IMG/VR virus record: IMGVR_UViG_3300033066_000417
From: an uncultured virus (IMG/VR IMGVR_UViG_3300033066_000417)
Lineage: Duplodnaviria > Heunggongvirae > Uroviricota > Caudoviricetes
DNA length: 64,000 bases
Direction: 5' to 3' (one strand)
The notes below the pieces were generated by a model that did no database searches, had not been told where the DNA came from, and worked only from the letters and a program-made list of their open reading frames with translations. Position 1 is the stretch's first letter; each line of letters starts with the position of its first letter. A program made the translations under genes and the position numbers. This document shows positions 15,298 through 64,000 of the stretch, one piece after another.

Positions 15298-18200
15298 ATG
15301 GCTTTCATAAAAAGAGCACAATCAAAATTCAAAGTAGAGCAGGTTTATAGCTATTCTGATTTACAGGAAGGTCTTGTAAAAGTAGCTGGTAAGAATGTAA
15401 CTGCTAAAGTGATAAATAAAATATCAAGCATCCCAGCAATTCAAGCTGAGCCTGATAATTATTTGTATATACGTAATAGAAGTGTTTCAGGTTTAGATAC
15501 TTGGGGCTTTAATTCTAATTTTGATGCGTTCCCTTCCGAAGAATTACAATCAGCATACAAAACATTTGTACGTGTAGGTATTTCTGTAGACCATATTAAC
15601 AATGGAGAAGAAGATTTAATAGGTCTTGTTCTTGACAGTGAGTATGTTCCTAAACAGTTATACTGCATAAACGACAATACATTATTTCCTTTCTCAGAAG
15701 AGAAGAGAGCTTCTTTAATAAAAGAAGGTAAGAAATTAAAGGTTGTTGGAGATTATGTAGAGAACTTACTTTGCATAGACAAAAAACTTGCTAATGAAAA
15801 ACGTGCAGGACTTGTAGAGGCTATCCTTAACGGAGAAGTAACAGATACAAGTATGGGAACAAGTGTACAGGAATCTGAGTGTTCAATTTGTGGTAATGTA
15901 GCCAGAGGCGAACATGAGTACTGTGAGCATATAAAGTGTAAACGTTGTGGTAACAGAGCTCCTAAGAATGGAGAAAAAGAGTGTCTTCATAGCAACGATA
16001 AAGGTAGAATGATTTCTTACAATGGTCATAACCCTAAATACTGCTATGAAATAAACAGAGGACTTGATTTCTTTGAGGATTCTATTATCCTTTCTGAAAC
16101 CTTTGCTAAAAAATCTGGTGCTACAGCTCAGGCTGGTGGAGAAGGTGCTGATACTGGTGCTAAGATTCTTGAAGTTGTTGCAAACAAGAAACCTTCTATA
16201 CTTGATGAAGTAAAGAAGAGAGCTAATGTTGGTACTCTTTCAGATGACACTATCGTTATCGGAGAAGAGCCTAAAGAGCTTGAGCAAAAAAGAGAAGAGT
16301 ATGAAGAAAGTCGTGAAGATTATTTTGAAGATGGTAAAACTTCAATGAAGATTGAAGATAAAGATATTACTGCTTCAACATTAAAATCTATTGCTAAAAA
16401 TAAAAAAGATTATTCAGAATTTGAAAATGAAGTTTCAAAAGTAGTAGGTAGCATCTCAACACCTTCCAGAATAAAGTTAAGAAGCTTCTATAAGACTTTT
16501 CAGGAAAGGCACAGAGATGAAGTGCTTGCTGTTGCTAAACATATAGTTGATACTCAGGACGGAATAAATCAGGAAAGCTTAAAAGAAAGACTTGCAAGCC
16601 ACGGATTTAATCAGAAAGAAATTGATGAAGCTTTAGCTTATCAGGTTAAAGTAAAAGGTAATTATGATGTTTCATCTAAGCTTAAAAACTTCCTTGTGGA
16701 AGGAATGAAGCTTTACAATGAGATTGACAAGACTGCTGACCTTCAAGGAGCAAACTATGCTAATACAATGAACACTGGATTAGCTGAGCTTGTTGACAGG
16801 TACAATGATTCTAAGATGGATGACTCTGGTGACTTAAACGAAACCAAAGGGGCTGACGGGAAAAATTATATTGGTTCAGAGCCTATTGGTGAAACTAGAA
16901 GCATGAAGAAAACAGCAGACCTTAAAAATGAAATTTTACAATTTGTAAACGGTCAGACTGAAACTCCTAAAGAAAATATCTTTGGAAGATTTGGATATCA
17001 GCCAGAAGTAAATCAGGCTATTGATGATTTAGTATCAGAAAATAAAGTTACTGTAGATGAGTTCGAATCAGTTCATCCAGTTACAGATGATATTAATAAT
17101 GCAGGAGCAACCGCAGAAGCTCAGGAAAATGTATCAGTAGTAGAACCTTCTGAAACAGACTCTTTTGCTAACGTTGAAGCTTTTGAAAAGTATTTAATAA
17201 ACCCTCAAAGTGACTGGGTAATATTATCAGCAACAGACCAAAGTAAAACAACTGATGCAAACGGTAATTCAATACCTGCATACTTAAACCCAGAGAACAT
17301 AGAAGCAAATCAAAAACTTCTAACAGATATTAAAGCTCTTGGATTGGATGCAGTTGAGGCTCAGGGTGTTTATCTAAACAACCCAGAAGGAAAAAGTTAT
17401 CTTGTAGACGGTGCTTCCCTAAAGGATGGAGTATTCCTCGGACTGAAATATAATCAGGAATCAATTTTAATTCCACAAGGTATCTACACATTGCCTAAAG
17501 CTGGAAGTGAAAATGTAAAAAGCCCACAAGATGTTTCTGAAGCTTTAATACATCAAGGTGAGCTTGCTCCAGCAACTACATCTGGAAATCAGCCAGTTGT
17601 TTATTGGGGAGAGTCTGCAAAAGAGCAGGATGGTTATACAACATTAAACATTGGTGGTGAAGATGTTGCATTCTCATTTGATATTGACTGGAACGGTATA
17701 AAACCTTTCGGACAATATTTAAGTAAGACTTCTGGACTTGTGGAAGATGAAGCTAAAGATGCTCAAGAAGTAAAAGATGATGCAGAGATAATAAAATACA
17801 CTGATGAGGACTTAACAAAAGAAAGTAAAAATACAATGATTGAAAGATTAGAGCTAACAGCCAGAAGACTGAATAAGGCATTTGAAAAATTTGCTGGTAT
17901 TGACATGAATAAGGAAATTTGGGAAGGGTGGACAGTCGGTAGCTTCATAGAGGAACTTGAGCCTTCATTTGATATGATTATGAATGGTCAATCATGGCAA
18001 GAGCCTTTTAAGACGGTAGCTGAAGTTAAGAAATGGTGTATGGAAAATCAGCCTTACTATAAGAAGTATATACCAGAAGTAGTAAACTATTTCTGGAATA
18101 AGGTTCAGCAGAACTCTAACAACAGGTTTGCTAAAAAAGCTTCTGACAAAGTAAAACAGGATAAAATGGATATCGGTGGAGTAGGTAGCCCTGACTCTGA

Positions 18201-56752: not shown

Positions 56753-57101
56753 AGTAGAACAAAAATTACGAGAACTAGAAGAACGTAAAAAAAATTTACA
56801 CACAGAAGAATACAAAAAACTATTCAAAGATACACAAGAACTTTACACAAAAATACTTAGAAACACAAACTTTCGTTTCTCCTTAACCGACCATGCAGTA
56901 GTTGAGTACCAGACAGATGTAGAATTTCTACCTCCTGCTCAGGCTAAATTTAACATACTGTATGCAGTGGAATCCTATTTCAACCTTCACCCTCAAATTG
57001 ATATAAAATCTCTTAAAGATGTTATATACAGACCTAATATAGATGGTATAATTTACGTTATAAAGAATAACAAAGTTATAACCACTTATCCAGCCGATTA
57101 A
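56727..57101 (+). CDS. Hypothetical protein (possible RelE-like fold at C-terminus)
   Basis: LTDHAV..Y and YVIKNNKVITTY. Confidence 0.45.
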   Translation: MKKNTSLHKVEQKLRELEERKKNLHTEEYKKLFKDTQELYTKILRNTNFRFSLTDHAVVEYQTDVEFLPPAQAKFNILYAVESYFNLHPQIDIKSLKDVIYRPNIDGIIYVIKNNKVITTYPAD

Positions 57102-57121
57102 AAAGGTACCAAATTTATGCA

Positions 57122-57180
57122 TTGTTTTTCTCATTTCTTTCCCCTATACTTGTAATAGAAAGTTAAACAATAAGGAGAAA
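57122..57180 (+). promoter_or_regulatory. Early promoter-RBS cassette, copy 1
   Basis: TTG-N20-TATACTTG; 57142-57180 identical to 58312-58350. Confidence 0.75.
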
Positions 57181-57182
57181 AA

Positions 57183-58250
57183 ATGAAATCATCTAAATTA
57201 ATCCCGTTTTTAGTGTTCTGCATCAAGACCAGACGTGTTGTTTTAGTAACAGGTCAAGCTGGTGGTGGCAAAACTGATAACATCTTACAGGCTGTAGCTT
57301 TTGTGGATGCTGAAGATAGGAATGCTCATAAAGCAAATAAGAATGACAAGAGAACTGCGGATGAGGTTGGCTGTGACGTTATAATCAGTCATCCAGTAGT
57401 AAGTGACCCTACTGACTTTAAAGGCTTACCAATGCCCTCTAAAGATGGTTTAACAGCAAACTTCTTACCCTTCGGAGACTTACAGAGACTTATGACTGCA
57501 AAAAGGCTCACAGTCTTCTTCATAGATGACCTTGGGCAGGCTTCACCAGCAGTACAAGCTTCAATCATGCAGTTACTCTTAGCCAGAGAAATCAATGGCA
57601 AAAAAATCTCTGATAATGTTGTGTTTATGATGGCAACAAACAGGAAACAGGACAAAGCTGGTGTAGTAGGAATACTGGAACCTGTTAAATCAAGATGTGA
57701 TGCTATTGTTGAATATGATATTGACTCGAATGACTGGATTAACTGGGCGTTTGACCATAACATGCCAATAGAGTTAATCGCATACGTTCAGCTTAAACCT
57801 ACAGTTCTAACAGAAGGTAAACCTTCCAATGACATAGTAAACACACCCTGCCCTAGAACAATAGCGAAAGCTGGCAAGTTCTTAACAGACGGTCTCCCTG
57901 AAGAGTTCCAGTCTGAAGCTTTCGAAGGTGCATGTGGAAAAGGTTTTGCAATAGAGTTTTCCAGTTTTTTAAAGCTTGTAAAAGAAATGCCAAGCTTGGA
58001 TGAAGTAATCAACAATCCTGATAATGTAGCTATCCCAGCTAAATTGGATATCCAGTATGCTCTCTGTGGTGCTCTTGTAAATGCAGTGAATGCAGTGAAG
58101 ATGCCTAACGTTGTAAAGTTCATGAGCAGGCTTCCTGAAGAGTTCCAGATGTTCACTCAGAAAGCAATAGCTTGTGCTAAACCGAAGTTAACAAAAGAAT
58201 ACAGCTACATGCAGTGGTCAGCAAAACTAGCTTCAAGTTTGGTAGACTAG
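57183..58250 (+). CDS. MoxR-like AAA+ ATPase
   Basis: GQAGGGKT Walker A, FFIDD Walker B, MATNR sensor 1, KSR, PCPR. Confidence 0.85.
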   Translation: MKSSKLIPFLVFCIKTRRVVLVTGQAGGGKTDNILQAVAFVDAEDRNAHKANKNDKRTADEVGCDVIISHPVVSDPTDFKGLPMPSKDGLTANFLPFGDLQRLMTAKRLTVFFIDDLGQASPAVQASIMQLLLAREINGKKISDNVVFMMATNRKQDKAGVVGILEPVKSRCDAIVEYDIDSNDWINWAFDHNMPIELIAYVQLKPTVLTEGKPSNDIVNTPCPRTIAKAGKFLTDGLPEEFQSEAFEGACGKGFAIEFSSFLKLVKEMPSLDEVINNPDNVAIPAKLDIQYALCGALVNAVNAVKMPNVVKFMSRLPEEFQMFTQKAIACAKPKLTKEYSYMQWSAKLASSLVD

Positions 58251-58259
58251 ATGAATCCC

Positions 58260-58288
58260 AATCCCCTAGAAATAGGGGATTTTTTTTT
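58260..58288 (+). terminator. Rho-independent terminator
   Basis: AATCCCCTA-GAAA-TAGGGGATT + T-tract. Confidence 0.9.
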
Positions 58289-58291
58289 ACC

Positions 58292-58350
58292 TTGTTTTTT
58301 AAAAAGATTTACCCTATACTTGTAATAGAAAGTTAAACAATAAGGAGAAA
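58292..58350 (+). promoter_or_regulatory. Early promoter-RBS cassette, copy 2
   Basis: TTG-N20-TATACTTG; 39-nt identity with copy 1. Confidence 0.75.
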
Positions 58351-58356
58351 TTAAAA

Positions 58357-59241
58357 ATGAGTAAGACAATAGCAGATACAAAAGTAGTAGCAGTAGTAGA
58401 TGGCAAGATAAATGTTACTGAAAATGCGTTAATAGTAGCAGTAAGTATCTCTCAGTGGGTTGCCAGAAAACAGGATAAGATAGCTACAAAAGCTGTAGAA
58501 AAAAAGTTTGATACATCTGGTAATGCAGGTGCTTTCCAGAAAGCTTTAGTTGATTCAGAACTGCTTAAAGAAATCCAGCAGATAGCCTCAGAGTTACGCA
58601 CATACCACAACACCAACACTTTGCCGTGGGGTGATAATGGGGACAGGTTCTTACCGATGACAAACTACCATGAATATATGGGTGTAATCTCTCAGCTCAA
58701 AGCAAAGTTTGAAGATAAAGTAAAAGAGTTTGAAAAAGAATATCCAGCACTGAAAGCTGATGCAAGAATGAGACTAAATGGTCTTTTCAGTGAAGATGAC
58801 TATCCGAATGATATCTCTTCAAAGTTTGGAATAAGAATAAGACCTATGCCAGTACCTGCAACAGAGCACATGAATGTTAATCTTCCAGAAGAAGAGCTTA
58901 AAAGACTTAAAGAAGAAATGGGAATTGAAGTTGAAAACCGTCTCCAGACTGCAATCAATGATATCTTCAAACGTTTGGAAAAGACTGTATATAATATGGT
59001 TGAAAGACTTAAGGATGTTGATAATAAGTTCAAAGACAGTCTGGTTGATAATGTAAAAGATATCATCAAACTGGCTCCAAAGTTGAATGTTTATAATGAC
59101 CCAAAGATTACAGAGCTTTGCAAAGACATGAAGAAGTTAGTTGTTAACCCTAATCTGCTCAGAGCTGATGTAATAACAAGGAAAGAAACCTGCAAGAAAG
59201 CAGAAGACATCCTGAAGAAAATGAAATCCTTTGTAGCGTAG
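58357..59241 (+). CDS. DUF3150-like protein
   Basis: ISQWVARKQD, TLPWGDNGDRFLP, LFSEDDYP, FKDSLVDN; adjacent to AAA and DUF2201 genes. Confidence 0.6.
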   Translation: MSKTIADTKVVAVVDGKINVTENALIVAVSISQWVARKQDKIATKAVEKKFDTSGNAGAFQKALVDSELLKEIQQIASELRTYHNTNTLPWGDNGDRFLPMTNYHEYMGVISQLKAKFEDKVKEFEKEYPALKADARMRLNGLFSEDDYPNDISSKFGIRIRPMPVPATEHMNVNLPEEELKRLKEEMGIEVENRLQTAINDIFKRLEKTVYNMVERLKDVDNKFKDSLVDNVKDIIKLAPKLNVYNDPKITELCKDMKKLVVNPNLLRADVITRKETCKKAEDILKKMKSFVA

Positions 59242-59255
59242 TTTAACTTTCTAAT

Positions 59256-59287
59256 GGAGAGGGCATATTGCTCTCTCCTAATTTTTT
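59256..59287 (+). terminator. Rho-independent terminator
   Basis: GGAGAGGGCA-TAT-TGCTCTCTCC then TAATTTTTT. Confidence 0.75.
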
Positions 59288-59300
59288 ATAATAAAAAAAA

Positions 59301-59624
59301 ATGGAAAAAGTATTTAATGCAATAGTAGATTTTATTAAAACTAATGAACTTGAAGAGAACGTTATAAAAATAGAGAGGTATGGTAATGGAACAATTGAAC
59401 AGCTTAAATCTAATGAGTGGGGCATTATGCTGGCTTACACAGATGAGGAAGTAAGAGAAATAGGTGACTATGAGTTTGAAGATATGTTTATAGACTATGA
59501 TGAAGAAATGAATGAAAAGTATAAAGAAGATGGTATTGCTTTTGATACAGAAGAAGCAGACCCTGCTGTAGGTCAGGCTTATGTAAAAGTTACTTATACA
59601 CCTAAAGAGAGGACACAAGCATAA
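59301..59624 (+). CDS. Acidic hypothetical protein
   Basis: 107-aa ORF. Confidence 0.6.
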   Translation: MEKVFNAIVDFIKTNELEENVIKIERYGNGTIEQLKSNEWGIMLAYTDEEVREIGDYEFEDMFIDYDEEMNEKYKEDGIAFDTEEADPAVGQAYVKVTYTPKERTQA

Positions 59625-59625
59625 A

Positions 59626-59997
59626 ATGGGATACGAAATAAAATTAATTTTAGGAAGAACCACTGACCAAGGAAGTGAACAAAAATGGTTTCGTGAAGCA
59701 GGGGCTCTGGACATAGGAAAATTTAATGACAATGAGCTTGGTAAACTAAAAAGCGTACTTGAGAAGAATGAGACAGGAGCTACAGAGGTTTTTATTTATG
59801 AGTCTGATGGAAATACTAAATGTTATGAAGATAAATATGGCAATGCTCTTGTTCCTACACTTACATGGATAGTTGCAGAAGCTCTGGAGCAGGATAATAA
59901 GATATACGAAAACGAAGAGTTAGAAGCAATTATACCATTTTTAAGAGAGATTTCTAAAAATCCGTACTGGCATAATTGTATAATTTTTGGTCACTAA
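59626..59997 (+). CDS. Hypothetical protein
   Basis: 123-aa ORF (DGN...EDKYG...FGH). Confidence 0.6.
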   Translation: MGYEIKLILGRTTDQGSEQKWFREAGALDIGKFNDNELGKLKSVLEKNETGATEVFIYESDGNTKCYEDKYGNALVPTLTWIVAEALEQDNKIYENEELEAIIPFLREISKNPYWHNCIIFGH

Positions 59998-60005
59998 TTT
60001 ATACC

Positions 60006-60036
60006 TTGTTTTTTACGATTCTTTGTTGTAACTTTG
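60006..60036 (+). promoter_or_regulatory. Bacteroidota-type early promoter
   Basis: TTG-N20-TAACTTTG. Confidence 0.7.
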
Positions 60037-60058
60037 TATTATAATTAAACAATTAAAA

Positions 60059-61165
60059 ATGACCGAGAAGATAATAAAAGGCAGACAACAGTTACTTTTG
60101 ACCCACAGTTTCTGGGCATCCATGACCTTAAATCTTCCTTTAATAGAAGATAAGACCATAAAAACAGCCTGTACTGATGGAACCAGCATAAGGTATAATC
60201 CAGCCTTTACAGAGGCTCTGAGTGTGTCTGAGGCTAGCTGTTTACTGGCTCATGAAGTGGCTCATGTCATGCTTACACACCATCTTAGACGTGCAGGAAG
60301 AGACAATAAGAAGTGGAACGTGGCTTGTGACTATGTTATAAACCCTCTTTTAGTTGCTGATGGTTTTGAACTTCCAAAAGGCGGTCTTTTAAATGATGCT
60401 TATAAAGATATGAATGCTGAGCAGGTTTATAATTTACTGCCTGATAGTGATGATGATAACGGTGATGGTGATGGAGATGGTGGTTCAGGCTTTGGAGACG
60501 TTGAAGATTATCCTGAAAAGAATAAAGTAAGCAAAGATGAACATGAAGCTCAGGTACAGCAGATGGTAGCACAGGCTGAGAACTTAGCAAAACAACAGGG
60601 CAATATGCCAGCAGGTATGGCAAGGATTGTAGAAAATATCTTAAATCCACAGCTACCATGGCAGGAGATTCTTGCAAGATTCATATCAGCACCAGTAAAA
60701 GATGATTATAGCTGGAGAAAACCTAACTCAAGGTATGCACACATGGGAATGTATCTTCCTAGCTTGTACAGTGAAAAACTTCAGAAAGGTGTTTACGCTG
60801 GTGATACTTCAATTTCAATGGATAAAAAAGAGATAGCTGAAGAAGTAGCAGAGATAACCAGTGTATGCGATTTATATAATCAGGATATGACAGTTATATG
60901 GTGTGATTCAAAAGTAGCTGGAGTAGAAGAGATTGAAGCATTCGGTGACAGACAGATAAATCCAGTTGGTGGTGGTGGAACAGATTTTGCCCCAGTGTTT
61001 GACTATGTTGAAGAGAATGAAATCAATCCAGCTTGGTTAGTATATCACACAGATGGTGAATGTAACAGTTATCCAGCAGTTGAACCTGAATACCCAGTTA
61101 TCTGGATTTGCACTGGTGAAAATTTTAATCCTCCTTTTGGAGAAGTAATTTATAAAAACAGTTAA
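60059..61165 (+). CDS. DUF2201-type metallopeptidase + vWA-like protein
   Basis: TACTDG, LAHEVAH, WNVACDYVIN, DTSISM, GGGGTDF.PVF, HTDG, PPFG. Confidence 0.85.
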   Translation: MTEKIIKGRQQLLLTHSFWASMTLNLPLIEDKTIKTACTDGTSIRYNPAFTEALSVSEASCLLAHEVAHVMLTHHLRRAGRDNKKWNVACDYVINPLLVADGFELPKGGLLNDAYKDMNAEQVYNLLPDSDDDNGDGDGDGGSGFGDVEDYPEKNKVSKDEHEAQVQQMVAQAENLAKQQGNMPAGMARIVENILNPQLPWQEILARFISAPVKDDYSWRKPNSRYAHMGMYLPSLYSEKLQKGVYAGDTSISMDKKEIAEEVAEITSVCDLYNQDMTVIWCDSKVAGVEEIEAFGDRQINPVGGGGTDFAPVFDYVEENEINPAWLVYHTDGECNSYPAVEPEYPVIWICTGENFNPPFGEVIYKNS

Positions 61166-61188
61166 AAGGCTTAGGAAGGAAAAATAAA

Positions 61189-61365
61189 ATGAAGACATTT
61201 TCTAAAACAGTAAGAGCACGTAACAGAAGAAAGTCGGCATATGCAAGACTGGAAAAACAGCTCAAGACAGGTACCAAAAATACAAAAGAAGGCGTGAAAG
61301 AGTTAACCGATAAAGATGTTGCCAGAATCAACACAGAGATGGTTACTCTGGAAGAAAGATTATAA
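61189..61365 (+). CDS. Small basic protein (not in ORF track)
   Basis: 58 aa MKTFSKTVRARNRRK...; AGGAAGGA upstream. Confidence 0.55.
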   Translation: MKTFSKTVRARNRRKSAYARLEKQLKTGTKNTKEGVKELTDKDVARINTEMVTLEERL

Positions 61366-61382
61366 TAGCTAAAGCGTAGCTA

Positions 61383-61498
61383 GTAGAGGTAGCTTCAATT
61401 GGCAGAGCAGTGCGAGATGTTGTAGTTGATAACAACACGGTAACTCTGAAAAGAGTGAAACACGCCTCAGTTTGGAGGTTCGAGTCCTCCCCTCTACA
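61383..61498 (+). ncRNA. tRNA-like RNA with expanded, branched anticodon region
   Basis: Acceptor GTAGAGG/CCTCTAC, D-arm GCTT-CAATTGGCA-GAGC, T-arm GGAGG-TTCGAGT-CCTCC; ~65 nt between D and T arms with two hairpins. Confidence 0.7.
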
Positions 61499-61527
61499 CA
61501 AGATTTAAAAAATTAAATTTAAATTAT

Positions 61528-61818
61528 ATGGAAACAAAAATAGTATTTCAAACTAATATAGATAGGTATAAAGGTAAATTTTATACACGTTCTTTTTTGA
61601 ATAGTAATGTTGTAATACCAAGAGTAGGAGACATGATAAAACTATCATACAAAGATGGAAGAAAGGAATTTACAGAAAAAGGATACCCTGACTCTTTGGA
61701 GGTGGTAAAAGTAACTTATGATTATGACGTAGAAATAATAGTAATAACTATTGAGTTACATTACAGTAGTATGGATTTAAAATTAATGAAAGCAAGCGAA
61801 ACACATCCGTATAAATAA
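61528..61818 (+). CDS. Hypothetical protein
   Basis: IPRVGD..LEVVKVTY small beta-barrel pattern. Confidence 0.6.
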   Translation: METKIVFQTNIDRYKGKFYTRSFLNSNVVIPRVGDMIKLSYKDGRKEFTEKGYPDSLEVVKVTYDYDVEIIVITIELHYSSMDLKLMKASETHPYK

Positions 61819-61839
61819 AAATTAAATTAAAAAACAAAA

Positions 61840-62010
61840 ATGGATATAATAACAATTATTTTTTACTGCTGTGCAGGCATGTTTAGTTTGTATTTTTTAG
61901 TAGCAAAAGTTACTCCGTTAACTGTAGCTTTGCTGTTTAAAGGGGCATCAATATTCTCACTGGTTTATATAGTAGTTCAGATTCTCAAAGCAACAGGATA
62001 TATAAATTAA
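61840..62010 (+). CDS. Small two-helix membrane protein (not in ORF track)
   Basis: 56 aa, hydrophobic, fills gap. Confidence 0.5.
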   Translation: MDIITIIFYCCAGMFSLYFLVAKVTPLTVALLFKGASIFSLVYIVVQILKATGYIN

Positions 62011-62011
62011 A

Positions 62012-62215
62012 ATGAAAAACGAAGAAAAAGAATTATGTTCCAGATGCCACAAAGATATGAATAAGGGCTCCAATGAAGGTGGCTGTGTATGTTGCAGAGA
62101 GCACTCAAATCAAATTATGGTGCCTGTAGAACGGGCTCCAGACCCAGATAATGATTATGACAATGAAGAGATTGAATTGTATGATGTAACAAGAGATGAG
62201 GTAAGCAGGTACTAA
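62012..62215 (+). CDS. Small Cys-rich protein
   Basis: CSRC...CVCC. Confidence 0.55.
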   Translation: MKNEEKELCSRCHKDMNKGSNEGGCVCCREHSNQIMVPVERAPDPDNDYDNEEIELYDVTRDEVSRY

Positions 62216-62571
62216 TGACTAGACAAAACTTAATACACCTTATTCAAAAAGAATGCTTAACAGCATGGCATGAGTTTTATGAGGCAGATGCTAAAAACAC
62301 GCCTGCTGAGAAAAACTTTAATCTTTATAATATTCGTGACTTTTACGATTACTTTGACAAACTTGGAATCTTTATAGTTATAGACTCATATGAGTATGAA
62401 ATTAAAAAATTGGAGTGTAGAAAATTTGAAGGTTGGTTACTGTTTGACGGGGACATGGGACTTAAAAATATTCGTCTTGAGCCTGCTTTCAATTCCAGAG
62501 TAGAAGCTGAATTGAATGCGTTTTATGAAGCGTTTAAAATAAGAGAAGGACAGTTAGAAGGTAAAAAATGA
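62215..62571 (+). CDS. Hypothetical protein
   Basis: YFDKLGIFI..FNSRVEAE..AFYEAF. Confidence 0.6.
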   Translation: MTRQNLIHLIQKECLTAWHEFYEADAKNTPAEKNFNLYNIRDFYDYFDKLGIFIVIDSYEYEIKKLECRKFEGWLLFDGDMGLKNIRLEPAFNSRVEAELNAFYEAFKIREGQLEGKK

Positions 62572-62649
62572 ATTCACAAGAATTGCAACTGCTAGCAGTA
62601 TTTAAAGCTGATAATAAGGAACTATTAGAAGCAATAGAGGATTAATAAA

Positions 62650-63330
62650 GTGAAACAACAACTTCCATTTGCATTTATAGTTGTAAAAGTATTAGGGGCT
62701 CCTATTGATGAAGAGCTTATGACTGACACACAGCAAGCAGAGTTTAACAGGATGTTTGCCAAATCAGAAACTACTGAGACCCAGTACAAAGCTAGGAATT
62801 TTGGGTTCTCTGATATTGATAAAATATTTTTACAAACGTTCAGGGTAGCTGAACTAACTGAAGAAACTCAAACAGTAGAAGGAAGACCTATACACAATTG
62901 TGGAGATTTTTCTTTAGTAGAGTTTGAAAGTTCAGTGTTAAACTGGCAGGATTTTGTAACACGTTTAGCTGGAATACAGGAATCAGGAAAATCAATTTGC
63001 TGGGTAACCTACAACGGTCTTATCTATGACCTTCCTAGAATCAATTATGAAATCATCCGTACAGGAGCTGATGTTAATCTTATTCCAACACCACGTTATT
63101 CACTAGCATTTGTTTTTGATATCATGCAGTGGGTGCACTGTTGGAATATAAGTAATGGGCTGTTGATAACCTGCGAAGCTTTTGGGATTCCTACAAATAT
63201 AAAGTATACCGATAAAGATTATATTGAAAAAGTATATGCTGGCAAAGTAAACAAAGATGAGTTCATGTTGGCACAAGGAAGTTATATTTCAAAATTGCTA
63301 CTTAAAACAGTGAGGTATTATTTTCAATGA
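62650..63330 (+). CDS. PolB-related 3'-5' exonuclease-fold protein, probably inactive
   Basis: WVTYNGLIYDLP, FDIM, LLITCEAFGIP present; ExoI DxE and ExoIII YxxxD not seen. Confidence 0.55.
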   Translation: MKQQLPFAFIVVKVLGAPIDEELMTDTQQAEFNRMFAKSETTETQYKARNFGFSDIDKIFLQTFRVAELTEETQTVEGRPIHNCGDFSLVEFESSVLNWQDFVTRLAGIQESGKSICWVTYNGLIYDLPRINYEIIRTGADVNLIPTPRYSLAFVFDIMQWVHCWNISNGLLITCEAFGIPTNIKYTDKDYIEKVYAGKVNKDEFMLAQGSYISKLLLKTVRYYFQ

Positions 63331-63605
63331 GTAATGAACTAAAGATAGAAATACTTAAAAAAATGAAGGTTATCCTTCAACGTGAGGTTTGTACTGGGTT
63401 TTGTAAAGCGTATGAAATAGCCACAGGAATAACAGGTGAAAATACCATGATTATAGTGTCAGAGGATATTGAAAAATCACTTAATGAGTTAGGACTGTAT
63501 AGACCATATGATAATCTATTTTCTTGTTTTTGGTACCGTACATATGATTTACAAATTCGTCTTGATAAGATTGATGAAGCAATTGCAAAATGGGAAAATG
63601 AATAA
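63327..63605 (+). CDS. Hypothetical protein
   Basis: GFC..FWY..RLDKIDEAI. Confidence 0.55.
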   Translation: MSNELKIEILKKMKVILQREVCTGFCKAYEIATGITGENTMIIVSEDIEKSLNELGLYRPYDNLFSCFWYRTYDLQIRLDKIDEAIAKWENE

Positions 63606-63843
63606 ATTTACATTCACAGGATACGTAGCTCGACAGCCAGTAGTGGAAAAGATTTTAAAAGAATTCCCAGATAAGAAAGGTGTAATATACCTAACAAGAC
63701 ACTATGAAGGAGACAGGCATCCAGAAAATGTTAATGATTATGGCTTAGTAGTAGAAGAGCACCATGATTATATTTTGTTGCCTCCTGACAGCTTCCCAGA
63801 TTTGAAAAAGTACAGAAAATGTAAAGTAACCGTGGAGTATTAA
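63598..63843 (+). CDS. Hypothetical protein
   Basis: ATG 63598 (MNKFTFTGYVAR) preferred; LPPDSFPDL. Confidence 0.55.
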   Translation: MNKFTFTGYVARQPVVEKILKEFPDKKGVIYLTRHYEGDRHPENVNDYGLVVEEHHDYILLPPDSFPDLKKYRKCKVTVEY

Positions 63844-63861
63844 GGGTACCAGATTTTTACC

Positions 63862-63892
63862 TTGTTTTTTGATTTTATTTCTCTTATACTTG
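63862..63892 (+). promoter_or_regulatory. Early promoter
   Basis: TTG-N20-TATACTTG then AAAGGGAG RBS. Confidence 0.7.
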
Positions 63893-63916
63893 TATTACAA
63901 TAAAGGGAGAAATTAA

Positions 63917-64000
63917 ATGAACTGGTTAGAGATAAAAAAAGATGTACTGAAAGCTATACCAGCAGATGCTCCGAAAGAGTGGGTCAAAGCAGTTCTCTAC
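63917..64000 (+). CDS. Hypothetical protein, 3'-truncated by window
   Basis: ATG after RBS; open to window end. Confidence 0.5.
   Translation, partial: MNWLEIKKDVLKAIPADAPKEWVKAVLY

Follow-up and report, generated by a model that had tools for sequence, protein, structure and literature searches.

The tRNA-shaped stable RNAs of phages T4 and T5 have been known for decades, and their function is still unexplained. T5 RNA1 (NC_005859, 30501-30644), annotated as a ‘tRNA-like stable RNA with unknown functions’, presents a frame of 130 nucleotides (nt) with an acceptor stem (6/7 pairs), a D arm with GG, a T arm and a branched insert of about 80 nt, and is situated in the tRNA region beside two other stable RNAs. 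The small stable RNAs rnaC and rnaD of T4 (species 1 and 2; NC_000866, 70908-71171) also lie beside tRNA genes, and rnaC combines a canonical T arm and a terminal acceptor-like stem with a large branched core. Here we analyse a 64,000-nt stretch of an uncultured virus, IMG/VR record IMGVR_UViG_3300033066_000417 (the whole stretch is referred to as the window), which is part of a large uncultured tailed phage, and describe in it a tRNA-derived element of 116 nt at positions 61383-61498 of the + strand. The phage is about 160-190 kb in size; its nearest record, G001 (159.5 kb, about 82% complete, 35% G+C), is near-identical to the window.

How does this locus compare with the described RNAs? The element shares with T5 RNA1 and T4 rnaC an acceptor/T-arm frame around a non-tRNA core and residence in a phage with tRNA genes of its own, and with RNA1 in particular the D arm with GG and the plan of a long insert, which in RNA1 takes the place of the anticodon and variable region. 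The insert of the element is about 42 nt long, against about 80 nt in RNA1, and neither RNA1 nor rnaC/rnaD has any sequence similarity to the element. Unlike in the element, our frame scanner (described below) detects no D arm when applied to rnaC, and rnaD gives no tRNA frame at all. RNA1 has tRNA genes and stable RNAs as neighbours and is recorded as a stable RNA, whereas the element is isolated and is known here from sequence alone. RNA1 homologues occur in 487 GenBank phage records at 74-100% identity; among the 12 matches listed they are mostly unannotated or filed under ‘hypothetical protein’. T4 also has polynucleotide kinase and RNA ligases, and one RNA ligase is annotated in the region around rnaC/rnaD. 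The element is probably a tRNA-shaped RNA unable to read codons that resembles the stable RNAs of T5 and T4. We assign a probability of roughly 45% to the reading that its transcript is processed into a tRNA-like RNA that does not decode, T5 RNA1 and T4 rnaC being the nearest known cases. Its presence in an unrelated uncultured phage with tRNA repair enzymes suggests that the tRNA-shaped RNA design recurs, and this design may belong to the contest over host tRNA-cutting defences.

The anatomy of the element was read directly and from alignments to two tRNA models: R2, a covariance model whose training set comprised 17 normal phage tRNAs plus 18 long tRNA frames other than the element, and R1, whose matches are limited to 90 nt, so that other long frames are reported as 89-90 nt with their acceptor stems cut back. 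The features are the following.

61383..61389, + strand: 5' strand of the acceptor stem, GTAGAGG, with 7/7 Watson-Crick pairs to 61491-61497 (R2 alignment)
61390..61391, + strand: positions 8-9, T and A, aligned to UA of the model (R2 alignment)
61392..61408, + strand: D arm GCTT/CAATTGGCA/GAGC, 4 pairs including one T.G, and a 9-nt loop with GG
61409, + strand: position 26, A (R2 alignment)
61410..61412, + strand: residual 5' strand of the anticodon stem, GTG, nt 27-29 (R2 alignment)
61413..61454, + strand: 42-nt insert after nt 29 (R2 alignment)
61410..61437, + strand: possible decayed 5' half of a second tRNA (R1 alignment, 21.8 bits, E 3.4e-4)
61418..61437, + strand: hairpin 1, TGTTGT/ACAACA with an 8-nt loop; an alternative register gives a 7-nt loop TTGATAA
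61443..61456, + strand: hairpin 2, ACTCT-GAAA-AGAGT, its 3' end overlapping nt 30-31 of the residual anticodon stem (R2)
61455..61468, + strand: residual anticodon arm, with GT (nt 30-31), a 7-nt loop GAAACAC and the 3' strand GCCTC (R2)
61469..61473, + strand: variable region AGTTT (R1 and R2 alignments)
61474..61490, + strand: T arm GGAGG/TTCGAGT/CCTCC (direct reading, scanner and R2)
61491..61501, + strand: 3' strand of the acceptor stem CCTCTAC, discriminator A61498 and trailer CAA, with C74 encoded and CCA not

Direct reading bears out the original prediction, which had described a 116-nt element with a perfect 7-bp acceptor stem, a D arm, a T arm with a TTCGAGT loop and no encoded CCA; the two hairpins it saw in the insert (61418-61437 and 61443-61456) are likewise there. 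The D arm and the T arm are separated by 65 nt, compared with about 23 nt in an ordinary tRNA. The acceptor stem, U8, the D arm with G18 and G19, the T arm with a TTCRA loop and the discriminator are all present, and the element is real and tRNA-derived. No G3.U70 pair is found in its acceptor stem. The D arm has one T more than the common form, a variant shared by the normal tRNA-Thr(TGT) of L220 and by the rod-type tRNA-like genes of L154/L218 and L221.

Statistical support for the frame comes from two sources. A frame scanner requiring a 7-bp acceptor stem, a D arm with GG and a 5-bp T stem with a TTCRA loop returns the element as its sole match on both strands of the window. On G001 the scanner gives 15 matches, comprising 13 tRNAs, the element and one alternative 5' end, and across unrelated phage loci totalling 520,122 nt there are 14, namely nine true tRNAs and five weak matches containing G.U pairs. 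R2 aligns 61383-61499 at full model length with 51.0 bits (E 1.9e-13), within the range of the phage's own tRNAs outside the training set (35.7-51.6 bits, G001), and its runner-up in the window scores 16.9 bits. The second-best match of both tRNA models (16.4 and 16.9 bits) is at 16627-16716 on the + strand, inside an open reading frame (ORF) of 1431 amino acids (aa); an acceptor-like stem of 7 bp is followed there by TA, a hairpin resembling a D arm and a short stem, but the T arm is absent, and the match is probably due to chance.

As an ordinary tRNA the element does not score. ARAGORN at default settings finds no gene there, and Rfam at gathering scores has no match; under relaxed settings the Rfam tRNA model RF00005 reaches 13.0 bits (E 7.1) in the wrong register, against a gathering score of 29 bits, and this relaxed match and R1 both align 61410/61416-61499 rather than the full element. 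With ordinary tRNA excluded in this way, the tRNA mimic and the degenerate tRNA named by the original prediction prove to be the right pair of options, which the analyses run do not separate. Other RNA classes fare no better. The YrlA/Y RNAs and the tRNA-like domain of tmRNA also mimic the acceptor, T and D arms and replace the anticodon arm by another helix; YrlA RNA, however, ends at the foot of a long helix and not at the acceptor stem, where the element ends. The YrlA model (RF02553) has no match on the element at E<=10, ARAGORN -m reports no tmRNA, the only tmRNA match in Rfam being that of the T arm to beta_tmRNA (9.3 bits), and neither the hammerhead nor any other ribozyme family has an Rfam match on the element.

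Bacterial and phage tRNA genes with group I introns, and archaeal/eukaryal ones with bulge-helix-bulge introns, resemble the element in that their anticodon region is interrupted. A group I intron is hundreds of nt in length; the insert of about 42 nt is far too short for one, as had been argued before, and Rfam matches no such intron to it, either at gathering scores or at E<=10. Removal of a bulge-helix-bulge intron yields a canonical mature tRNA, and none can be derived from the element. Their enzyme is not bacterial, whereas the tRNA-His of the element's phage appears bacterial-style: by our own reading its gene in G001 appears to encode a G-1/C73 pair, the bacterial style for this tRNA.

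By their pair probabilities, hairpin 2 of the insert is firm (0.92-0.97) and hairpin 1 moderate (0.61-0.74). The helix supposed to close the insert is ambiguous, two competing registers having pair probabilities of 0.32-0.39 each, so that the branched structure is less secure than the original prediction suggested. The fold of the element as a whole has a z of -2.01, equalled by 9/200 shuffles, and the thermodynamic fold uses the outer acceptor strand. The Ile-like register TT-GAT-AA on a stem with one mismatch is present as described, the mismatch being A.A. This TTGATAA loop belongs to a separate hairpin, 11 nt beyond the expected position of the anticodon arm, and by simple arithmetic a pattern of the TTGATAA type is expected by chance about once per 65 nt.

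The 5' part of the insert region carries a resemblance to a tRNA 5' half. In the R1 alignment, GTG(C)GAGA takes the place of an acceptor-like strand, TG that of positions 8-9, and hairpin 1, TTGT/AGTTGATA/ACAA, that of a D arm; the loop of hairpin 1, AGTTGATA, shares 7/8 letters with AGTTGGTA, the commonest D loop of the loci compared. The inner acceptor-like strand partly matches the element's own 3' strand. A D-arm-like hairpin motif was detected in the insert of the element only, of 72 inserts (among the matches listed, as described below), and in 56/3600 shuffles. These features suggest that hairpin 1 is not a purpose-built arm but a D arm in decay, with an acceptor-like strand in front of it. 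The inner piece and the outer 5' half are about 44% identical by hand alignment. Should the inner piece have arisen by duplication of the 5' half, then the frame would have been retained while the copy decayed, the outer frame being perfect and the inner piece diverged; such uneven decay would favour the reading as a non-decoding RNA.

The tRNA complement of the phage provides a context for the element. G001 has 15 tRNA genes according to ARAGORN and 17 according to Rfam, clustered 50-80 kb from the element, with Phe and Ile absent. Our own reading of their 3' context finds C74 in 17/17 parsed genes, CA in 9/17, CAA in 6/17 and CCA in 3/17; CAA or CAG follows the discriminator in nine tRNA genes. 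The CAA/CAG trailer may be a shared 3'-processing context, and with its C74 and CAA trailer the element resembles the phage's tRNA genes. Directly after tRNA-Tyr lies a polynucleotide kinase-phosphatase gene (120064-120999; phrog_505, E 1.2e-68), followed 1 kb further by an RNA ligase gene (122040-123302; phrog_968, E 5.8e-57), with an HNH endonuclease gene between the two. By their family matches, the kinase-phosphatase and the ligase, which lie outside the window, are identified as a T4-like tRNA repair kit; in T4 the polynucleotide kinase and RNA ligase pair repairs anticodon-nuclease damage (PMC2610378, PMC10264068).

Three further observations concern the tRNA genes of G001. A PD-(D/E)XK endonuclease gene (PF11645, E 1.9e-32; 146993-147415) lies between tRNA-Arg(TCT) and tRNA-Leu(TAA). 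The tRNA-Cys(GCA) gene (144442-144525, 84 nt) has an extra variable-arm hairpin and a 6-bp anticodon stem, and the tRNA-His gene (150256-150334) also has a 6-bp anticodon stem. The PF11645 family includes a homing endonuclease of a tRNA group I intron.

Is the element alone of its kind? A degenerate pattern of a D arm, 50-80 nt and a T arm matches at least 116 loci in IMG/VR; the counts that follow apply among the matches listed. Strict criteria retain 86 places with 71 distinct inserts as complete tRNA frames of 93-126 nt, so that together with the element there are 72 long frames. Rfam matches these frames as tRNA only, except that L114 reaches 31 bits with RF01656, a nematode stem-bulge RNA family whose cut-off is 38 bits. 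We searched each frame exhaustively for a single excision that leaves a canonical anticodon arm, defined as a perfect 5-bp stem with U33 and R37. Such an excision restores the arm in 47 of the 72 distinct long frames, compared with 16/1440 shuffles; 28 restorable frames are cut after nt 27-31, and some of the others are Tyr-GTA frames cut after nt 37, in eukaryote/archaeal style. For the element no single excision gives a canonical arm, the best reaching 3/5 Watson-Crick pairs, and it falls with the roughly one third of long frames that excision does not restore.

Thirty inserts have a common module, a 7-bp hairpin with compensatory changes at 5/7 pairs and, 3-4 nt beyond it, an invariant C[A/T]GCAA. 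We define as class B those inserts of 41-56 nt after nt 27-31 in which the 7-bp hairpin is followed by C[A/T]GCAA. In 23/30 of these genes the anticodon arm becomes perfect once the insert is excised; the genes are found at the following loci.

About nt 136-260 of each locus: class B inserts at L113, L117, L118, L123, L125, L127, L137, L141 and others
About nt 136-260 of each locus: further class B inserts at L145, L156, L168, L180, L189 and L191
Same site as class B: a second insert type of about 51-55 nt, after nt 28, at L114, L134, L147, L167 and L144

The carriers of class B represent at least 12 anticodons, including Arg, Lys, Gly, Ile, Thr, Pro, Val, Cys, Gln and two class-I-shaped tRNAs with Ser anticodons. 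From the sequences, at least two unrelated types of module use the site after nt 27-31, the hairpin with C[A/T]GCAA and the module of about 51-55 nt. A bulge-helix-bulge structure is not seen in class B inserts (two examples checked by hand), and if the inserts are of neither the group I nor the bulge-helix-bulge kind, the tRNAs would either lose them through a new route of splicing or carry them as a fifth arm. RtcB is encoded in 10/33 insert-bearing contigs and Terminase_6N in 2/38; a search for the capsid of nucleocytoplasmic large DNA viruses, made without a positive control, gave 0/38. For one class B example there are matches to two ‘Bacteriophage sp.’ records, both derived from human faecal samples. 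In the literature, covered mostly at the level of abstracts and including PMC7886860, we did not find short non-group-I inserts in the anticodon stems of phage tRNAs described. The element alone is an orphan of modest value, and the larger lead is these viral tRNA frames, longer than usual by 20-55 nt, a large group of which has a conserved, covarying module at a non-canonical site: by what means are such otherwise intact tRNAs matured, or put to use, by bacterial viruses?

In a further set of loci (L138, L148, L154/L218/L219, L221, L120 and L149) the anticodon loop is replaced by a long rod-like helix. The rod of L138 has about 21 pairs and is capped by TTCG, and CCA is encoded; L154 and L221 have the tRNA body in common and differ in rod sequence.

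The element has points of contact with class B. The R2 alignment would place its insert at the class B site (after nt 29, against nt 27-31) and give it a class B size (42 nt, against 41-56 nt), and its tRNA body is similar to that of the Val(TAC) class B group (92% over nt 4-29 and 91% over nt 90-111). The class B motif, however, is absent from 61409-61473, and excision does not restore the arm. These insert-bearing viral tRNA genes may form a large population that has apparently not been described; that the element is one of its diverged members, with a third type of module and a carrier that no longer decodes, seems to us unlikely. Kinship of its insert with other inserts was considered and rejected, the best global alignment to another insert having a z of 2.5.

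Could the element nevertheless be a precursor from which the insert is removed to give a decoding tRNA, either tRNA-Phe(GAA) or the product of a cut after nt 29? Some nuclease would make the cuts, and the phage's polynucleotide kinase-phosphatase and RNA ligase would heal and seal the ends. The absence of Phe and Ile tRNAs from G001 alongside the healing and sealing enzymes favours such a scheme, as do the R2 insert site after nt 29, a site range shared by 28 of the 47 restorable frames, and the inserts with the CAGCAA motif, 23/30 of which leave a perfect 5-bp stem. Yet the missing tRNAs may lie elsewhere, since G001 is 82% complete, and the R2 placement leans towards nt 29 because R2 was trained on inserts at that place. 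The residual stem, GTG and GT against GCCTC, has three Watson-Crick pairs and one G.T of five, two of its pairs being flagged as non-standard by R2; by arithmetic, 4/5 pairs arise by chance with a probability of about 0.07 before alternative placements are counted, which is not significant. A cut after nt 29 would also yield a loop, GAAACAC, without U33, and the insert has neither the hairpin-plus-CAGCAA module nor the length or the Rfam match of a group I intron. When introns are allowed and the threshold is lowered to 80-90% of the default, ARAGORN does call a tRNA-Phe(GAA) interrupted by a 39-nt intron, but the product has a 3-pair anticodon stem, 2 nt before the stem and a 7-nt variable region, and relaxed settings give 5, 12 and 77 calls in the window at 90, 85 and 80% of the threshold (none at default) and several per 7 kb in unrelated loci; we rejected the call as being at noise level. 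An intron-bearing precursor is in our estimation improbable. A class-II-like tRNA confined to the inner 90 nt (61410-61499), with 61383-61409 as a mere leader, a D arm formed by hairpin 1 and an anticodon arm formed by hairpin 2 (8-nt loop CTGAAAAG), is hardly credible. Its R1 alignment (21.8 bits, E 3.4e-4) was won by default under the 90-nt limit of that model, and we rejected it as an artefact of that limit; R2, which is able to span the whole, favours 61383-61499 instead, with 51.0 bits. With introns disallowed, ARAGORN also reports this inner span, with a 4-base anticodon GAAA at 80% of threshold, but the acceptor stem would be flawed by one mismatch, one bulge and a G.T pair, whereas 27 nt upstream there is a strand that pairs perfectly, and it is this strand that the thermodynamic fold uses.

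For the transcription, processing, stability and role of the non-decoding RNA that we favour, we infer the following course. A tRNA-derived gene with an intact cloverleaf frame, its anticodon arm interrupted by about 42 nt after nt 29, would be transcribed within the rightward gene train, and the transcript would fold via the D-loop/T-loop elbow. RNase P would cut the 5' end, and the 3' end would be trimmed and CCA-tailed like those of the phage's other tRNAs, leaving an RNA of roughly 116-119 nt that persists in tRNA shape and is unable to decode. Its role would be exerted through the acceptor/T-arm/elbow surface and not through the anticodon; readers of this surface would include RNase P, RNase Z, the CCA-adding enzyme, T-loop modifying enzymes and some tRNA-directed nucleases. 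Among roles we prefer that of a competitor substrate or sponge for host tRNA-recognising factors, because the near-identical record G001 has a tRNA repair kit and the lineage thus evidently meets tRNA-cutting defences, but this assignment is doubtful.

It is quite possible, on the other hand, that the element is a dead tRNA gene, in which an insertion or partial duplication of about 42 nt in the anticodon stem abolished the anticodon loop; the RNA, if made, would be roleless beyond its cleavage by tRNA-processing enzymes, and the frame would still be perfect because the event was recent. The failure of every single excision to give a working anticodon arm is what such a gene would show, and the element is isolated, 50-80 kb from the tRNA clusters of G001. 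Several results weigh against the favoured interpretation and for the most part suit a dead gene. The fold of the insert is unexceptional, its minimum free energy of -11.7 kcal/mol comparing with -10.5 +/- 2.7 for mononucleotide shuffles (z -0.44). The tRNA 5'-half-like fragment in the insert is the type of scar left by slippage or illegitimate recombination; a partial-duplication signature is equally expected from an accident in a dying gene, and the D-arm-like motif test was designed after hairpin 1 had been seen and is partly post hoc. No promoter or terminator brackets the element on the + strand in a scan for sigma-70 promoters and terminators. No diverged homologue of the element was found in GenBank phages, IMG/VR, metagenomes or prokaryote genomes; it is known from near-identical strains only. 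The absence of differences in the element in contigs of related strains from runs X3 and X4 says little, because the whole 387-nt stretch concerned varies at one position. Death of the gene is less easily reconciled with a frame whose 21 model pairs are all standard except the D-stem T.G, and with the intact 3' context. The identity of about 44% between the inner and outer pieces, if they are duplicates, implies long divergence without decay of the frame. The element also nearly fills the gap between two ORFs in a tightly packed genome, and T5 and T4 demonstrate that retention of such RNAs is possible.

The searches for relatives covered the following ground. Neither the element nor the region 57000-64000 had a blastn match in GenBank phages; exact patterns of the element had 0 matches in IMG/VR viral contigs, and a 21-mer of it had 0 matches in contigs of prokaryote genomes. 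A second copy of the insert is present neither in the window, nor in G001, nor in any locus compared. Neighbourhoods of homologues of the upstream DUF2201 gene (described below) contained no comparable element in 80 viral loci (<=45% identity) and 0 tRNA frames in 247,411 nt of 66 metagenome loci (<=52% identity); phages G002 and G003, the best DUF2201 matches, have no long tRNA frame. The nearest DUF2201 homologues, in Logan contigs, are 67% and 52% identical. G001 gives no covariation because it is 100% identical to the window over the element. The X5 and X7 contigs leave 61351-61473 uncovered, which proves nothing, and none of the eight sequencing runs listed is recorded as RNA.

The surroundings of the element are those of a densely coded phage genome. 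Every convincing gene of the window, and all 51 of its ORFs of at least 150 aa, lie on the + strand, and its proteins include matches to a baseplate-wedge family and a head-maturation-protease family. The ORFs that flank the element, leaving between them a 162-nt gap that it almost fills, are the following.

61189..61365, + strand: upstream ORF of 58 aa, no family match
61528..61818, + strand: downstream ORF of 96 aa, no family match

Further upstream is a cassette of three genes (57183-61165), which encode a MoxR-like ATPase, a DUF3150-like protein and a DUF2201 metallopeptidase/VWA protein. These are the only three of 75 window proteins matched in phages G002 and G003, at 39-46% identity, and on these protein comparisons the cassette looks mobile among unrelated phages. 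The related strain of run X3 has 302 additional letters at 61158-61163 of the window. In the same strain the last roughly 200 nt of the DUF2201 gene contain 16 differing positions and four gaps, and the following 387 nt contain one difference; this sequence comparison marks a mosaic boundary a short distance upstream of the element.

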